Positions 22,040 to 31,135 of a DNA stretch of 36,146 bases are shown here, one piece after another. The notes under the pieces are model-generated. The model was not told where the DNA came from, ran no database searches, and saw only the letters and a list, made by a program, of their open reading frames with translations. Every line of letters begins with the position of its first letter. Within the stretch, counting starts at the first letter, position 1. The DNA comes from Candidatus Pacearchaeota archaeon (GTDB lineage: Archaea; Nanobdellota; Nanobdellia; Pacearchaeales; GW2011-AR1). The stretch covers positions 1-36,146 of the forward strand of contig JAGVXK010000010.1 of assembly GCA_018303825.1 (NCBI GenBank). The letters are read 5' to 3'. The position numbers and the translations under genes are program-made.

Positions 22040-22091
22040 AAACATCATAAAAAGCAAAGTTTAAAAATTGCTGGGGGTATTTAGCTGTACC

Positions 22092-23315
22092 ATGGTCAAA
22101 TCTCATCTCAAATCTAGAGTTAAATCAAAGGAAACGTTCATTCTTACCATTAATGGCGGTTCTTCAAGCATTAAGTTTGCCCTTTTTGAAACCTCTAGTT
22201 TAACAAGGGTTCTTGAAGGCAAAATAGACAGGATTGGATTAAAGGACGCAACATTAACATTTAGTGGAAAAGACAAGAAAGACAATGTTTCCCAGAATAT
22301 TTCTGCTGGAACATACAAAGCGGCGGTTGATGTCTTGATATCATTTTTAGAAAAAAAGCTTGGAAAGAATGCAATGAACAATATGGTTGCTGTTGGACAT
22401 AGAATTGTTCATGGGGGACTAAAATACAACAAACCTGAGGAAGTTGATAAAGAAATGCTTGCTGAATTGCACAATATAAAATCATTTTCTCCAGAACATC
22501 TCCCAGGAGAAATACTTTTAATGGAAACTTTCAGTAAAAAGTTTCCCGGATTAAAGCAAATAGCTTGTTTTGACACTGCATTCCATAGGGAAATGCCAAA
22601 AGTAGCACATATATTGCCGATTCCAAGAAAATATTATGATAAGGGCATTAGGCGTTATGGATTTCATGGAATTTCATATTCTTTTCTAATGGATGAACTT
22701 TCAAGAATCTCAGGAAAAGAATATCTTGGAAAAATAATAATCGCTCACTTAGGAAATGGATGCAGTCTTGCTGCTGTCAATAAGGGTAAGTCAGTTGATA
22801 CAAGCATGGGCTTTACTCCAACTGCTGGAATTCCAATGAGCACCCGTTCAGGCGATATAGATCCAGGATTGGTTTGGTATTTAGCAAGAACTGAGAGAAT
22901 AGATGCAGAGCAATTCAATAAAATGATAAATTCCCAGTCTGGACTTTTTGGTGTTTCTGAAATAAGTTCAGACATGAGAGACCTACTTGAGAAAGAGGAA
23001 AAAGATAAAGACGAAAGGGCAAAAGAGGCAATTGATTTATTCTGCTATCAAATAAGAAAGTTCATTGGCTCATATTCTGCTGCAATGAATGGCCTCGATA
23101 CTTTAATTTTCAGTGCTGGAATAGGAGAAAACGCCCCAAAGATAAGAAAAAGAATCTGTCAGCATTTTGGATTTTTAGGAATTGAGTTGGATGAAAAGAA
23201 GAATAATGCAAACTCTGAGATTATCTCGTCAAAAGAAAGCAAAGTAATAGTTAGAGTAATAAAGACAGATGAGGAATTGATGATTGCCAAGATCATCTCC
23301 TCATTTATTAAATAA
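22092..23315 (+). CDS. ackA: Acetate kinase
   Basis: INGGSSSIKF, GHRIVHGG, FDTAFH, RRYGFHGISY, HLGNG.S, SMGFTP..G, TRSGDIDP, AGIGEN, TDEELMIA. Confidence 0.95.
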   Translation: MVKSHLKSRVKSKETFILTINGGSSSIKFALFETSSLTRVLEGKIDRIGLKDATLTFSGKDKKDNVSQNISAGTYKAAVDVLISFLEKKLGKNAMNNMVAVGHRIVHGGLKYNKPEEVDKEMLAELHNIKSFSPEHLPGEILLMETFSKKFPGLKQIACFDTAFHREMPKVAHILPIPRKYYDKGIRRYGFHGISYSFLMDELSRISGKEYLGKIIIAHLGNGCSLAAVNKGKSVDTSMGFTPTAGIPMSTRSGDIDPGLVWYLARTERIDAEQFNKMINSQSGLFGVSEISSDMRDLLEKEEKDKDERAKEAIDLFCYQIRKFIGSYSAAMNGLDTLIFSAGIGENAPKIRKRICQHFGFLGIELDEKKNNANSEIISSKESKVIVRVIKTDEELMIAKIISSFIK

Positions 23316-23330
23316 AAACACAAGATTTAA

Positions 23331-25739
23331 ATGAAACAAAAAAATAACAATAAGATGAAGAAGACTGAAAAGTCAAAGCAGGCGGGAATTTCAGCGGATT
23401 TATTAGAAAAGATGGATGCTTATTGGCGCGCAGCTAATTATCTTTCTGTAGGGCAGATATATCTTCTTAATAATCCATTGTTAAAAGAAAAATTAAAAAT
23501 TGAGCATGTCAAGCCCCGCTTGCTAGGGCATTGGGGCACAACTCCTGGATTGAATTTTATCTATGTTCATCTTAATAGATTGATAAAAGAAAAGAATTTG
23601 AACATGATTTACATAGCGGGACCTGGACATGGCGGCCCAGGATTAGTTGCTAATGCCTATCTAGAAGGAACATATACAGAATATTATCCAAAAATAACCC
23701 AAGATGAAAAAGGTATGCAAAAATTATTCAAGCAATTCTCATTTCCGGGAGGAATTCCAAGCCATGTTGCTCCAGAAACACCAGGTTCAATCCATGAGGG
23801 GGGAGAATTGGGATATTCTTTATCGCATGCATTTGGGGCAGCATTTGACAATCCTGATTTGATTGTTGCCTGTGTTATCGGAGATGGGGAAGCAGAAACA
23901 GGTCCATTAGCAACTGCCTGGCATTCAAATAAATTCCTAAATCCTGTAAAAGACGGGGCAGTTCTTCCTATTTTGCATTTAAATGGCTACAAAATAGCAA
24001 ATCCAACAATTCTTGCCAGGATTAATAAAGACGAATTGATAAAGTTGTTTGAAGGATATGGTTACAAGCCTTATTTTGTTGAAGGAAGTAATCCTAAAAC
24101 AATGCATCAGCTAATGGCTCAAACCCTAGATTTAGTAATAGCGGAGATAAAGCAAATCCAAAAGAATGCAAGAGATAATAACAAGCAGGAAAGACAGCTC
24201 TGGCCGATGATTATCTTAAGAAGTCCAAAAGGATGGACAGGTCCGAAGAAAGTTGATGGAAAACTAACCGAGAATTTTTGGAGGTCACATCAGGTTCCAT
24301 TATCTAATATCGCAACACAGCCAGCACATTTAGAACTATTGGAAAAATGGCTTAAGAGTTATAAGCTGGAGGAATTATTTGACAAAAAAGGAAAGCTTAT
24401 CCCAGAATTAGCATCATTAGCTCCCAAAGGAAAGTTTAGAATGAGCGACAATCCGGTTGCGAATGGGGGAATTCTCCGAGAGGATTTAAAAATGCCCGAT
24501 TTCAAGAGTTATGCAATTTTAATTCCTAAGCCCGCAGCAGTTGAGGCAGAAGCAACAAAAGTTACTGGAAGATTTTTAAGAGATGTGATAAAAATGAATC
24601 CTAAGAACTTCCGCCTTTTTGGCCCTGATGAAACATCTTCAAATAGATTAGATGCTGTTTTTGAAGCGACAAAGAAAGTCTGGCTTGCAAATTATCTTCC
24701 TGAGGATAAAGATGGAAGCCTGCTTGCTCCGGATGGAAGAGTTATGGAAATCCTAAGCGAGCACACCTGCGAAGGATGGCTTGAAGGTTATCTCTTGACT
24801 GGAAGACACGGTTTCTTTTCCTGTTATGAAGCTTTTATCCATATAATTGATTCAATGTTCAATCAGCATGCCAAATGGCTTCATGTCTGCAAGAAAAATA
24901 TTAAATGGAGAAAGCCAATTTCATCATTAAATATCTTATTAAGTTCACATGTTTGGAGGCAGGACCATAATGGATTTTCCCATCAGGACCCTGGTTTCAT
25001 AGATCATGTTGTAAATAAAAAGGCAGATGTTGTCCGAGTTTATCTTCCGGCTGATGCAAATACTCTCCTTTCCGTTGCTGATCACTGCTTGAAAAGCAAA
25101 GATTATGTAAATATCATTGTTGCAGGAAAACAGCCGGCTTTGCAATATCTTTCAATAGATGAAGCAATCAAGCATTGCGAAAAAGGAGCATCAATTTGGG
25201 AATGGGCAAGCAATGATAAGGGAAATCCGGATGTAGTTATTGCCTGTGCCGGAGATGTTCCAACAATGGAAGCTCTAGCTGCGATTTCAATATTAAGAAA
25301 GCAATTTCCCAAATTAAAAGTCAGGTTTGTAAATGTCGTAGATTTAATGGTTCTTCAAACCAAGAGTGAGCACCCCCATGGAATGCTAGATGCAGATTTT
25401 GATAAAATATTCACTAAAAACAAGCCAATAATATTTGCCTTCCACGGTTATCCTTGGCTGATTCACAGATTAACATACAGAAGAGCAAACCATGATAACA
25501 TTCATGTTAAAGGATACAAAGAGGAAGGAACAACCACAACTCCATTTGACATGGTTGTCCTGAATGACTTAGACAGGTTCCATCTTGTCAAAGATGTTAT
25601 AAGAAGAGTTCCAAAATTGAAATCATCAGGGAAAGCAGTAAGCAAAATGATGGAGGACAAACTATCAGCACATAAGAAATACATCCAGCAATATGGCAAG
25701 GACATGCCCGAAATAACAAGCTGGAAATGGACTGAATGA
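23331..25739 (+). CDS. xfp: Phosphoketolase (xylulose-5-P/fructose-6-P phosphoketolase family)
   Basis: [29 protein letters not shown] (TPP binding), [30 protein letters not shown]. Confidence 0.96.
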
Positions 25740-26315: not shown

Positions 26316-26334
26316 TTTCTTATTTTTCAGCAAG

Positions 26335-26418
26335 TGCGGGGAAGAGGATTCGAACCTCCGAAGGCACTAAGCCGGCAGCTCTTGAGGCTGCCCCATTTGA
26401 CCGCTTTGGTATCCCCGC
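26335..26418 (-). tRNA. tRNA-Leu(CAA), long variable arm, no encoded CCA
   Basis: Reverse complement GCGGGGA...GCAGC-CTCAAGA-GCTGC...GGAGGTTCGAATCCTC-TTCCCCGC-A. TATA-like TTTTATAG 21-28 nt upstream. Confidence 0.96.
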
Positions 26419-27235: not shown

Positions 27236-27422
27236 AACAATTAATTTTTTCAGACTATTAAAACTTTATGCCTCTCGAAAGCAATGTTTCATATGTAGGA
27301 TAAAACCCAATTATATATTTGCACCAATAGTCTATCTAGAGTATAATCTTATTATTTAACCAATAAGGGTGGCCATTCAATATCTAAAATAATATATTAA
27401 TTTGACATTAAAGGAAAAAATC

Positions 27423-27536
27423 GAAGACAGCATTGCTGTTTCGCCTCTTGACGGAGACTAGCGCAGGCAACGTAGCAAGCTTAGCTTCTGGGTTCGGAAT
27501 GTTACCAGGCGTTTCCTTGTTACTGTGGCCGTCTTC
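27423..27536 (-). rRNA. rrf: 5S rRNA, not adjacent to 16S/23S
   Basis: Reverse complement has helix I GAAGACGGC/GCTGTCTTC, the conserved CATTCCGAACCCAGAAGCTAAGC, and loop-E-like CTAGT/GCGAAAC; 114 nt. Confidence 0.93.
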
Positions 27537-27848: not shown

Positions 27849-27884
27849 TAACATTTAAAAGGCAATTCCCTTTATGTTTTTAAT

Positions 27885-27955
27885 GGACATGTAGCACAAT
27901 GGGAGTGTACACGATTGAAGCTCGTGCCGTGGGGGTTCGATTCCCCCCTTGTCCA
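27885..27955 (+). tRNA. tRNA-Phe(GAA), no encoded CCA
   Basis: GGACATG / D arm GCAC-AATGGGA-GTGT / CACGA-TTGAAGC-TCGTG / GGGGG-TTCGATT-CCCCC / CTTGTCC-A. TTTAAAA about 25-31 nt upstream. Confidence 0.92.
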
Positions 27956-28001
27956 TTTTCATTACAGCAATTCTTATAAATGTCAGATATTAGAATAATC
28001 T

Positions 28002-28214
28002 ATGGATGATGACAATAAATGTTATTATGTTAGTGCAAATGAATTATTTATAAATCCAAGATACACATCTATACGGGAAGATGTTCGAGCACAGATTAGA
28101 AAGGAAAAGGAAAAAGAAGAACCAATTCCACTTTGTGCTACTCATGTCGGACAGCAAGCTTTTCTCTGGGCGGAATTAGGTCACAAGATTTTTGGCGCAG
28201 AGGGAAGAGATTAG
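28002..28214 (+). CDS. Hypothetical protein (70 aa)
   Basis: ATG-started ORF with a TATA-like CTTATAAAT about 20-30 nt upstream. No recognisable motif. Confidence 0.5.
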   Translation: MDDDNKCYYVSANELFINPRYTSIREDVRAQIRKEKEKEEPIPLCATHVGQQAFLWAELGHKIFGAEGRD

Positions 28215-28247
28215 TTAGTAAAATTCTCCGAAAATATTTATATAAAA

Positions 28248-28676
28248 TTATCTTTGTCCCGGCGGCGGGAGGAACTTTTCAGGATTATTGGGCTGCCTAC
28301 TAGGTCTTTGAGGATTATTAGGTCTATTAGGCATTGGCCTATTTGGCATGTTAGGCCTGTTCGGTGCATTTGGTTGTCTGTAATGAGGCTGATTTCTGGG
28401 CATTTGCTGGAAATTCCATCTAGGTGCTGGTTGATAAATATGAGGTCTTTGATAAAACTGGGGTCTTGGATGAAAATGCCAGTCATTATGTCTAATCCTA
28501 TATTCCGGAAGAATTATAACACTCCCGTAACAGGCAGGACCTCGCACTTCATATATCTCTGTAATTATTCTAGGTCTGGAGTAAACAACTCTTTCTGGAA
28601 CTATCGCACACCCAGAAAGGATTGCAAGGGCTGTCCCCCCTATCAAGCCAGCAAGCTTTTTACCCAATCTATCCAT
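28248..28676 (-). CDS. Putative lipoprotein with a Pro/Asn/Arg/Gln-rich low-complexity tail
   Basis: MDRLGKK, hydrophobic stretch, LSG-C lipobox; C-terminal PNRP/PNNP repeats. Confidence 0.7.
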   Translation of the reverse strand: MDRLGKKLAGLIGGTALAILSGCAIVPERVVYSRPRIITEIYEVRGPACYGSVIILPEYRIRHNDWHFHPRPQFYQRPHIYQPAPRWNFQQMPRNQPHYRQPNAPNRPNMPNRPMPNRPNNPQRPSRQPNNPEKFLPPPGQR

Positions 28677-28736
28677 CAAAAATAAAGGCATGAGAAATAT
28701 ATAAAATTAAGTATTAATTTTTTAGTGAAGATAACT

Positions 28737-29594
28737 TAAACAATCCGCCCCTACTTTTCAGCATTATTTTACACACAGATTTTTGGGTACAAACAATCAT
28801 TTGATTATTTGGAAAAGATTAAAAAGTAGTCATTAACCTAGAAACTATGGAAAAATGGAATACTTCATTGGTTATTGTTGGTCCATCAACTTCTGGTAAG
28901 ACTGAACTAGCATTTACAATTGCAGAGACATTAAGTGGGGAGGTTATTAATGCTGATAAATATTATCTTGTAAGAGGATTTCCAACTATGACTGGATTGC
29001 CTAATTTTTCTTCCCATCCTACAGTCAAATCTCATTTATATGCGGAACTTGACCCTACTGAAGACACACTTAATTTAGTAGATTATGCAAATAGAGTAAC
29101 TAGAATTGAATCTGAAATCAAAGGTAGGGGAAACCTTGAGATTATTGAAGGTTCTTATCATAGGTTTATTAGAAGTCTTTTAGATTCTGGAAGATCTTAT
29201 AATTGCATAGGAATTAAATGGTCTGGAAATTTAGAATCGCGAGTAAGAAAACGGGTTGAAGATGTAGTTTTTCATGAAGAACAAGGTATAGATGAAGTTA
29301 GACGAGGTCTAATGAATGGATGGCGTGATACTTATGTTATGAAGCATGGTTCTGCAATCCGCCCTATTGTTGAATACCTAGATGGAAAGATAAGTTTAGA
29401 TCTAGCAAAAGAAAAAATAGTTTATGAAGTTCTTGCAACTGCATACAAAGCATATAGAAAATTCTTAGAGTTTCCTGAAATAACTTGGCTAGAAAATAGT
29501 CCGGATCAATCAGAAAGATTGACGAGGGAAGTAATGGAATCAATTAGAAGAACAAATAATCATTAGGTTATATGTTTTAGGGGCAGGTTATTTA
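28737..29594. repeat. Imperfect 17-bp inverted repeats (28737-28753 and 29578-29594) flanking the IPT gene
   Basis: taaacaatccgccccta versus reverse complement taaataacctgccccta: 14 of 17 match and all three mismatches are C/T transitions. Confidence 0.4.
28847..29566 (+). CDS. Isopentenyl/dimethylallyltransferase, IPT/MiaA superfamily, short 239-aa form
   Basis: VIVGPSTSGKT P-loop, EVINAD, HLYAELDP, IIEGS, RVRKRVE, I.EYLDGKIS, C-terminal W; lacks the central insertion of about 310-aa MiaA proteins. Confidence 0.85.
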   Translation: MEKWNTSLVIVGPSTSGKTELAFTIAETLSGEVINADKYYLVRGFPTMTGLPNFSSHPTVKSHLYAELDPTEDTLNLVDYANRVTRIESEIKGRGNLEIIEGSYHRFIRSLLDSGRSYNCIGIKWSGNLESRVRKRVEDVVFHEEQGIDEVRRGLMNGWRDTYVMKHGSAIRPIVEYLDGKISLDLAKEKIVYEVLATAYKAYRKFLEFPEITWLENSPDQSERLTREVMESIRRTNNH

Positions 29595-29638
29595 GACCAA
29601 ATAACCCCTTAGTTTATTTATCCTTTAAAATAAAAAGT

Positions 29639-29964
29639 GTGAGTCGGGATTAGGCCAGATTCTGTCGAACTCTGTTCCATTTCTGGACAGACAGTTCGTG
29701 CTGACATCTGTCTATGCGTGCGGCTATGGCACTTGCATCAGCGAAGTCGCCCGTTTCATCCTTTCTCTTTCTTCTCAGATTCCCTCAAGGTTCATTTCTC
29801 TGAAAGAGCGGTGTCGTTTCTGTTGCGGAGCTCTCCCTCGCGAGAGCCTACTTTTCAATAGGTCGCTTCTTAATGATGTCCGGACCTTCCTCAGAAATAA
29901 AATTCATTTCTTTTGAACTTTTGCCAATTTAATGGCTATTTCCGTAGTCAGCTTCCCGACTCAC
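29639..29964 (-). ncRNA. rnpB: RNase P RNA
   Basis: P1 GTGAGTCGGGA/TCCCGACTCAC; P2 GCTGAC/GTCAGC; P4 AGG(U)CCGGA/TCTGGCCT with the bulged U; conserved GAGGAAGGTCC, GCAACAGAAAC, GATGAAAC, TAGACAGAT, ACAGAA. Confidence 0.95.
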
Positions 29965-30937: not shown

Positions 30938-31135
30938 TTATGCTTTCTTAAACTTCGTAATTTCAGGCAGCATGTCTGCATGCCCTAACAAAGCAGCCCT
31001 GCAGCAATATCTCTCAACTTTAAGCTCATCAAGGACCTTTCCAGGGTCTTCCCCAGCTTCTACTCTTTTCTTATATTCATCCCAGAGCTGGCCTATCGGC
31101 TTGCCACAGCCGAAGCATCTAATTGGTATGATCAT
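30938..31135 (-). CDS. rpoN: DNA-directed RNA polymerase subunit N (Rpo10)
   Basis: [14 protein letters not shown] ... RYCCR zinc-binding signature. Confidence 0.97.

Follow-up and report, generated by a model that had tools for sequence, protein, structure and literature searches.

The short isopentenyltransferase and its family

The 36,146-nucleotide stretch of contig JAGVXK010000010.1 analysed here (assembly GCA_018303825.1; hereafter the window) carries at 28847..29566 on the forward strand an open reading frame (ORF) that starts with ATG and encodes a protein of 239 amino acids, a short isopentenyltransferase (IPT) with a MiaA-like core and without the insertion domain of tRNA-modifying enzymes. 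The gene lies between a tRNA-Phe(GAA) gene (27884..27956, forward strand) and, convergent with the IPT gene, an archaeal RNase P RNA gene (29639..29964, reverse strand; Rfam RF00373, 134.9 bits, E 6e-38). The window is archaeal, because archaeal RNase P RNA, a 5S rRNA (27422-27536, reverse strand, from an RNA search of the window) and RpoN (30938-31135, reverse strand, from the window annotation) are present. The source organism is a DPANN archaeon, and its genome (G000 in our collection) comprises 805,733 bases in 23 contigs with ~35% GC, being 85.7% complete and 0.03% contaminated.

The translation of the IPT gene contains the motifs GPSTSGKT, INADK, HLYAELDP and IIEGSY, and the Pfam IPPT profile (PF01715) matches it with 32.3 bits (E 1.1e-7, cut-off 23.6), the best stretch being residues 43-113 only. 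A first-pass annotation, made from the letters of the window, had named a 239-residue protein of the IPT/MiaA superfamily, and the ORF, the motifs and the profile agree with it; judged from the sequence, the membership in the superfamily is real. Of the two Pfam profiles named there, IPPT passes whereas IPT (PF01745, the Tzs family) remains at 13.7 bits, under its gathering cut-off of 20. The NCBIfam miaA equivalog TIGR00174 gives 56.5 bits, far under its cut-off of 148.65. In a phmmer search against the PDB, MiaA (2qgn) was found with E 2e-12 and Tzs with E 0.12, and the alignment to Bacillus halodurans MiaA falls into two pieces, query residues 8-112 with MiaA 6-109 and 121-218 with 195-290. 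A family profile built from 64 short homologues scores 177 bits on B. halodurans MiaA 2qgn (both halves), 133 on E. coli MiaA, 108 on yeast Mod5, 100 on the hop adenylate IPT and 54 on Tzs. The AlphaFold2 (AF2) model of the query is very confident (predicted local distance difference test, pLDDT, 96.6; predicted template-modelling score, pTM, 0.92), and its template-modelling (TM) scores in Foldseek are 0.82-0.88 with MiaA cores, 0.72 with the hop enzyme and 0.67 with Tzs. Because of these profile, Pfam and fold scores, sequence and model identify the query as a MiaA-type core without the insertion and not as a member of the Tzs family. Bacterial MiaA (PF01715/TIGR00174; 2qgn, 3d3q, 2zm5, 3foz) is its best profile and fold match over both core halves, with the P-loop, the catalytic Asp and the donor-diphosphate Arg in common. 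The likeness to Agrobacterium Tzs/Ipt that had been read from the IIEGS motif holds for its Glu, which is common to Tzs/Ipt and 60 of 63 family members, but not for the protein overall, which is MiaA-like (177 versus 54 bits; TM 0.86 versus 0.67).

The site at which canonical MiaA carries its insertion (swinging) domain of ~80 amino acids corresponds to residues ~112-121 of the query (29180..29209, forward strand), and the domain is absent here. The query has 7 residues in the insertion columns and Tzs has 10, against a median of 80 in canonical MiaA, and the alignment jumps at this junction from query 112/114 (MiaA ~110) to query 119/121 (MiaA ~187/195). In the PDB alignment to B. halodurans MiaA, ~85 residues of MiaA are without a counterpart in the query, and the AF2 model superposes on the MiaA core; the lack of a tRNA-gripping insertion, as claimed in the first-pass annotation, is thus confirmed. 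Moreover, the insertion domain with its tRNA-binding Arg167 and Arg170 is absent across the whole short family, and to our knowledge it is retained in every characterised tRNA-IPT. Flipping of A37 has been argued to need this domain, which clamps the anticodon arm (PMC2836551).

A search of 1.84 billion representative proteins gave ~65 one-piece full-length matches of 226-263 amino acids (E 1e-82 to 1e-10), and canonical MiaA proteins of ~310 amino acids appear in that search only after the short proteins and as two-piece matches. In a maximum-likelihood tree, canonical MiaA form a single clade (99*) with the query's clade outside, Tzs/Ipt are on a separate long branch (1.48) that is not adjacent to the query, and the short proteins are a diverse set outside both. 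The query belongs to a clade of 11 (99*) together with P0002-P0010 and P0014, within which 54 columns are invariant, and its close homologues (55-78% identity) are intact in other metagenomes. P0007, P0008 and P0009, which are 47-51% identical to the query, are the nearest outgroup in this clade; their contigs are probably bacterial, because they have 54-62% GC and one of them has an RtcR-type sigma-54 activator. By sequence, the short proteins are a separate and diverse family of ~230-260 amino acids outside the canonical MiaA clade. Of the two placements considered in the first-pass annotation, a position among canonical tRNA-IPTs is not seen, and neither is a grouping with Tzs/Ipt.

Carriers of the short form comprise several Woesearchaeota and Nanoarchaeia metagenome-assembled genomes (MAGs), an 'uncultured Methanosarcinales' MAG, Limisphaerales and other Verrucomicrobia, a Saccharibacteria MAG and a Pseudobdellovibrionaceae MAG. 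One locus from the same class as the window (L009, genome G204) is on GCA_028714095.1, 'Candidatus Nanoarchaeia archaeon'. Some of the short-form records are named 'isopentenyl transferase family protein' or 'hypothetical protein' at NCBI, and a literature search found no paper on the short family. With the family profile at E <= 1e-10, 6 of the 401 genomes of the phylum were matched; within the window's own family the profile matched none of 27 other genomes and then none of 30 further genomes. Because this profile detects both forms (it also picks up canonical MiaA, E 1e-51), the phylum sample is without the canonical or the short form outside those few genomes. The IPT gene is accordingly regarded as accessory, patchy and horizontally acquired. 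N6-isopentenyladenosine (i6A) counts as a modification of bacteria and eukaryotes. According to a 2018 survey, Archaea lack IPPT/IPT-domain genes (PMC6071968). The present locus and its relatives show that genes of the IPT superfamily do occur in DPANN archaea, and that they belong to a distinct short uncharacterised family.

Catalytic and acceptor-site residues

Residues were compared in an alignment of 135 sequences (63 short proteins, 69 canonical MiaA, Tzs, Ipt and E. coli MiaA), with residue roles taken from PMC8234997 and PMC2836551. The P-loop G12-P-S14-T-S-G17-K18-T19 (28880..28903, forward strand, as are all sites below) is the putative prenyl-diphosphate site, where T19, K23 and T24 of E. 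coli MiaA correspond to S14 (T in 47 and S in 11 family members), K18 (63/63) and T19 of the query. Asp37, followed by Lys38 (28955..28960), is by alignment the candidate catalytic base, equivalent to D42 of E. coli MiaA and an Asp in 61 of 63 family members. Arg136 (29252..29254) aligns with MiaA Arg217 and Tzs Arg138, in a column that is Arg in 60/63 of the family, 66/69 MiaA, Tzs and Ipt; this Arg binds the prenyl-donor diphosphate in MiaA and Tzs (PMC8234997). As far as the alignment can tell, the query and the 63 family members retain the chemistry residues, so that the loss of catalytic residues considered in the first-pass annotation has not occurred at S14, K18, T19, D37 or R136.

The acceptor side differs from canonical MiaA at several positions. 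Lys38 takes the place of S43 in E. coli MiaA (S47 in Mod5); this residue is K in 41, R in 5 and S in 6 of the 63 family members, whereas it is Ser in 60 of 69 canonical MiaA. Tzs has R34 and the hop enzyme HlAIPT has K63 at this position, as opposed to S47 of the tRNA-IPT Mod5, and the basic residue binds a nucleotide phosphate (PMC2836551). A direct alignment likewise sets INSDK of the hop enzyme on INADK of the query. The stretch E101-G-S-Y104-H-R106-F107 (29147..29167) corresponds to V-G-G-T-x-L-Y of MiaA and E-G-G-S-I-S-L of Tzs. Its first residue, V105 in E. coli, is Glu in 60/63 of the family and also in Tzs and Ipt (V41/A16/E5 in MiaA), and the position of HlAIPT S131 and Mod5 Y114 is R106 in the query (R9/K1/Q1 in the query clade). 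In K201-A-Y-R204-K205-F206 (29447..29464), which matches the MiaA motif R-Q-x-T-W-F, K205 replaces W285 of E. coli MiaA. The family has K in 20 and R in 15 of 63 sequences here, and Trp is never among its commonest residues; MiaA has Trp in 59/69, Ipt has Lys and Tzs has D221. An alignment with Mod5 also places the family 'k' on the Trp of Mod5 KW. HlAIPT K275 and Tzs D221 are known to be equivalent to Mod5 W299, the Trp that stacks on A36 in tRNA-IPTs (PMC2836551), and our alignment reproduces this published equivalence between Tzs D221 and the tRNA-IPT Trp, which speaks for its accuracy at the Trp site.

Residues of MiaA that contact tRNA are replaced as well. The tRNA-binding K56 of E. coli (K in 54/69 MiaA) is L51 in the query, the tRNA-binding K280 is Y200 and the conserved pair T275-R276 is Val-Leu; E. 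coli A55 is G50, and Tzs also has Gly. In the loop of HlAIPT K220, Tzs D171 and Mod5 Q256 the sequence alignment is unreliable, and the equivalent of Lys220 could not be mapped. The median isoelectric point (pI) of the short family is 6.3 (6.1 for the query) and that of Tzs is 5.6, whereas canonical MiaA have 8.5, and 8.55 if only their core is counted.

In relation to known adenylate enzymes, the query resembles Agrobacterium Tzs/Ipt (Tmr; PF01745; 2ze5) in its length of ~240 amino acids, its two-domain core without insertion, the basic residue after the catalytic Asp (R34/K38), the Glu of E-G, the Gly of T/S-G and the conserved Arg. It differs from Tzs in the low family-profile score and TM given above, in the separate long branch of Tzs, and in having Lys205 for Asp221 and Tyr104/Arg106 for Ser99/Ser101. 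The hop enzyme HlAIPT (3a8t) is an IPPT/MiaA-lineage enzyme that acts on free nucleotides, and the two lysines with which it contacts the beta and gamma phosphates, Lys63 and Lys275, align with Lys38 and Lys205 of the query; in contrast, HlAIPT is ~330 amino acids long and its Ser129 and Ser131 are not kept in the query. By these alignments, Lys38, Arg106 and Lys205 would be located at the channel mouth, the place of nucleotide-phosphate binding in the adenylate IPTs of plants and Agrobacterium.

The acceptor substrate

Because the clamp domain is missing, tRNA-contact residues are replaced and Lys38, Arg106 and Lys205 are predicted at the channel mouth, a free adenine nucleotide is proposed as the acceptor. 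We give about an even chance to the reading that the query is an active N6-adenine prenyltransferase of a distinct short family that acts on free adenine nucleotides, and it is preferred mainly because of the acceptor-site residues and the pI data. The enzyme would then consist of the MiaA-type catalytic core alone, with a P-loop domain and a C-terminal helical domain that form the reaction channel. From the conserved residues, Ser14, Lys18, Thr19 and Arg136 would hold the prenyl diphosphate, which may be dimethylallyl diphosphate (DMAPP) or possibly 4-hydroxy-3-methylbut-2-enyl diphosphate (HMBPP), and Asp37 would deprotonate N6 of an adenine entering the channel from the other side. The product would be an N6-isopentenyl-adenine nucleotide, and the basic residues mildly favour ADP/ATP as the acceptor. 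In the cell, such a product may serve as a signal, an effector, an intermediate of salvage or an antiviral nucleotide.

A search for conserved neighbours in 26 loci found nothing common beyond lineage-specific operons. One of these, belonging to the outgroup P0007, P0008 and P0009, is a four-gene operon (L001:165-3446, L004:4973-8165, L005:1681-4873) composed of the IPT, a FolE2/MptA-like GTP cyclohydrolase, a 246-amino-acid protein and an adenylate-kinase-like protein; the IPT heads the operon and its stop is overlapped by the FolE2/MptA-like gene. The profile of the 246-amino-acid protein matches HPRT 4rqa with E 6e-7 over the whole HPRT length, including the C-terminal GY..D...LP.IG.L.P motif. 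Its structural model is moderate (pLDDT 60 overall, 75-92 in the core), the top Foldseek matches are all HPRT or PyrR, and only 4 homologues exist among 5.8 billion proteins. Sequence and model suggest that it is a purine phosphoribosyltransferase homologue, and the three operon partners are all predicted to handle free purine bases or nucleotides, possibly in an uncharacterised purine-nucleotide pathway. On a 28%-GC DPANN contig (L002:1367-4978), the short IPT is found with GGGPS (PcrB), a 159-amino-acid protein, IspH/LytB and UPPS, in the order GGGPS, IPT, 159-amino-acid protein, IspH and UPPS. An IspH, with which the bacterial methylerythritol phosphate (MEP) pathway ends, would not be expected in an archaeon; the one encoded here is bona fide (TIGR00216, 270 bits versus a cut-off of 188). 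The GGGPS/IspH/UPPS context fits a prenyl-diphosphate donor.

At another locus a radical SAM gene with weak similarity to MoaA and viperin begins 4 nt downstream of the IPT, and on a Woesearchaeota contig a divergently oriented SLOG cluster-4 (LOG-superfamily) gene adjoins the IPT. Co-occurrence of SLOG/LOG with the IPT was rejected as a candidate link, since PF18306 is present in 153 of the 401 genomes of the phylum (a count that includes the unpublished genomes G244, G322 and G360) versus 3 of the 6 IPT-positive ones, that is, without enrichment. The genome of the window itself encodes a 210-amino-acid SLOG cluster-4 protein (C5:33054-33686; 31 bits, just over the Pfam cut-off) that is unlinked to the IPT and has a close homologue in 1 of 30 same-family genomes.

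Several observations weigh against free nucleotides as the acceptor. No characterised adenylate IPT comes as near to the query in overall sequence and fold as tRNA-IPTs do, the Ser129/Ser131 of adenylate IPTs are Tyr104/Arg106 in the query, and its basic channel-mouth residues could serve just as well to hold an RNA backbone. The partners of the nucleotide operon, IspH and GGGPS were not found in the genome (85.7% complete), nor was LOG (PF03641), which the first-pass annotation had named as a gene to look for, nor any route to DMAPP (no HMG-CoA reductase, IDI-2 or IspH). The isoprenoid genes detected are a polyprenyl synthase (C18:15845-16507) and UPPS (C2:33943-34608). Although genes may be missing from an incomplete assembly, the lack of a DMAPP route suggests that DMAPP or isopentenyl diphosphate (IPP) is scavenged; scavenging of isoprenoid precursors is usual for DPANN archaea. 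This lack qualifies every IPT function considered here, whatever the acceptor. Moreover, tRNAs of the MiaA-substrate type exist, namely tRNA-Ser(CGA) in the genome of the window and Ser(CGA) and Ser(UGA) in the IPT-positive G204. In G224 two tRNA-thiolation genes, for NcsA and a ThiF/UbaA-like E1, precede the IPT, and in 5 of ~21 distinct loci a same-strand tRNA gene is found 11-142 nt upstream of the short IPT. The free-adenylate acceptor proposed in the first-pass annotation is favoured by the absence of a tRNA clamp, the adenylate-type Lys38, Lys205 and Glu101, and the purine operon of the outgroup, and is weakened by the overall MiaA-like character and by the existence of a potential tRNA substrate.

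The last three of these observations are better accommodated if the query is a minimal tRNA A37 N6-isopentenyltransferase from bacteria, which would act on the A36A37A38 tRNA-Ser isoacceptors of this archaeon without the swinging domain and possibly with help from another protein. We consider this explanation possible, though on the unlikely side. By profile and fold, MiaA enzymes are the characterised proteins nearest to the query, the operon order in G224 is NcsA, ThiF-like E1 and IPT, and TruD and aminoacyl-tRNA synthetase genes are located near the IPT in some loci. The tRNAs directly upstream (L003/L009 in G204, L008/L072 in G030, L012 in G205, L062 and L066) are Gly GCC, Pro GGG, Arg UCG, Ala UGC and one intron-containing tRNA. 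This adjacency is far above chance at ~40 tRNA genes per megabase, and may be due to foreign DNA inserted next to tRNA genes as a hot spot, or to the use of tRNA promoters. However, the adjacent Gly GCC, Pro GGG, Arg UCG and Ala UGC tRNAs, as well as the Phe GAA of the window with its G37, are not MiaA-type substrates, and no MiaB-type partner (MiaB/UPF0004 domain) was found in the genome. The clamp that characterised tRNA-IPTs possess and that A37 flipping is argued to need is gone, K56, K280, W285 and T275/R276 are lost, and the family is near-neutral to acidic, unlike MiaA cores.

The tRNA complement was also considered in the first-pass annotation, according to which both UNN-reading tRNAs of the window, Phe(GAA) and Leu(CAA) (26334-26418, reverse strand, from the tRNA scan of the window), carry G37 and neither is a MiaA substrate. 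G37 is confirmed in both, but a sample of two is too small to conclude that the genome lacks a MiaA substrate. Among the 36 detectable tRNAs of the genome, the UNN readers Phe, Leu(CAA), Leu(UAA), Cys, Trp and Ser(GGA) have G37, whereas tRNA-Ser(CGA) (C14:1591-1672) has A36A37A38; the tRNA scan yielded no Tyr or Ser(UGA) tRNA. A36A37A38 tRNA-Ser(CGA) is also present in at least 7 same-family genomes that are without the IPT, which speaks against reading it as a sign of a tRNA substrate. Because A36A37A38 tRNA-Ser is found with and without the IPT, the tRNA data neither support nor exclude a tRNA role, and co-evolution of tRNAs with the IPT was rejected as evidence, no tRNA feature tracking the enzyme. 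In the IPT-less same-family loci (L017, L024-L028 and L031), tRNA-Ser(CGA), often together with Ser(UGA) or Ser(GGA), has A36A37A38. Introns of 13-75 nt are present in several tRNA genes of the window's genome (contigs C4, C12, C13, C21 and C22), namely Lys CUU, Leu UAA, a tRNA with a UAU anticodon, Thr UGU and probably Trp CCA, and these genes are missed by default ARAGORN.

It is less probable still, and in our view unlikely, that the acceptor is another adenine, such as that of a cofactor, a modified purine nucleotide made by a lineage-specific pathway, another RNA position or an antiviral-defence nucleotide. Heterogeneous neighbourhoods with no universal partner are consistent with it, as are the MoaA/viperin-like radical SAM and FolE2-like neighbours, whose relatives act on purine/pyrimidine triphosphates and resemble modified-nucleotide systems. 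An accessory, patchy and inserted gene is typical of conflict or niche genes, and Tyr104/Arg106 of the query clade depart from the family at the positions equivalent to Ser129/Ser131. In contrast, the residues for adenine-N6 chemistry are standard, no pathway-defining partner is adjacent in the genome of the window, and a defence-system link was rejected, because a PADLOC scan of the IPT gave only weak P-loop matches and no meaningful defence-family match. That the gene was transferred and is now decaying or without function is hardly credible: it is the sole copy among 58 family genomes, with no partners and no DMAPP source detected, but the ORF is intact with all catalytic residues and a very confident model, and its homologues are intact elsewhere with the invariant columns noted above.

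If the preferred free-nucleotide acceptor is correct, the query would represent an independent route to cytokinin-type nucleotides, with an origin outside both the Tzs and the plant lineage, and would mark a small-molecule function in reduced, host-dependent microbes. A wider proposal, to which we assign a low probability, is that of a third, uncharacterised IPT lineage that gene transfer has carried to some Verrucomicrobia and to microbes that depend on hosts or prey on others (DPANN archaea, Saccharibacteria and Pseudobdellovibrionaceae). Its N6-prenylated ADP/ATP or AMP would diffuse as a signal, be directed at a host as an effector or serve as an antiviral nucleotide. Should it be true, Archaea would have their first case of cytokinin-type nucleotide biosynthesis; the idea in the first-pass annotation that a host-dependent archaeon produces such a signal is speculation. 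If tRNA is the acceptor, on the other hand, the swinging domain would be dispensable and i6A would have been introduced into Archaea. Either outcome for the acceptor would change a textbook statement about Archaea.

The putative inserted segment and other genes of the window

The IPT gene occupies, together with one other ORF, a segment of ~1.7 kb (1.68 kb; 27957..29638) between tRNA-Phe, its left edge, and the RNase P RNA gene, its right edge. In four IPT-less relatives (G281, G402, G241 and G409), RNase P RNA and tRNA-Phe are co-oriented and 4 to ~800 nt apart, whereas in the window they are convergent with 1.68 kb between them and tRNA-Phe is 890 nt upstream of the IPT. Because IPT-less relatives keep RNase P RNA and tRNA-Phe as neighbours, the segment is most simply read as an insertion. 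A search for an att-like repeat or a direct repeat of the tRNA-Phe 3' end at the segment found none. In G402, RNase P RNA is directly upstream of tRNA-Phe with a gap of 4 nt.

The other ORF of the segment (28248-28691, reverse strand) encodes a protein of 147 amino acids whose N-terminus resembles a lipobox (ILSGC) and whose tail is rich in Pro/Asn/Gln/Arg, and which appears lipoprotein-like; Pfam and PADLOC searches with it gave no match. Beyond the RNase P RNA gene lies a Metallophos phosphoesterase with a signal-like N-terminus (30011/30044-30889), which the first-pass annotation had tentatively connected with the IPT as an enzyme that could dephosphorylate its product. The two genes are neither co-oriented nor adjacent, the oppositely oriented RNase P RNA gene being located between them, and no homologous neighbour recurs in other loci; the connection is one of proximity only.

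Farther upstream in the window (22068-25739, forward strand), an acetate kinase gene is followed by a gene for a full-length phosphoketolase (XFP). Together these two constitute a compact ATP-yielding module from pentose/hexose-phosphate to acetate in a very small genome.

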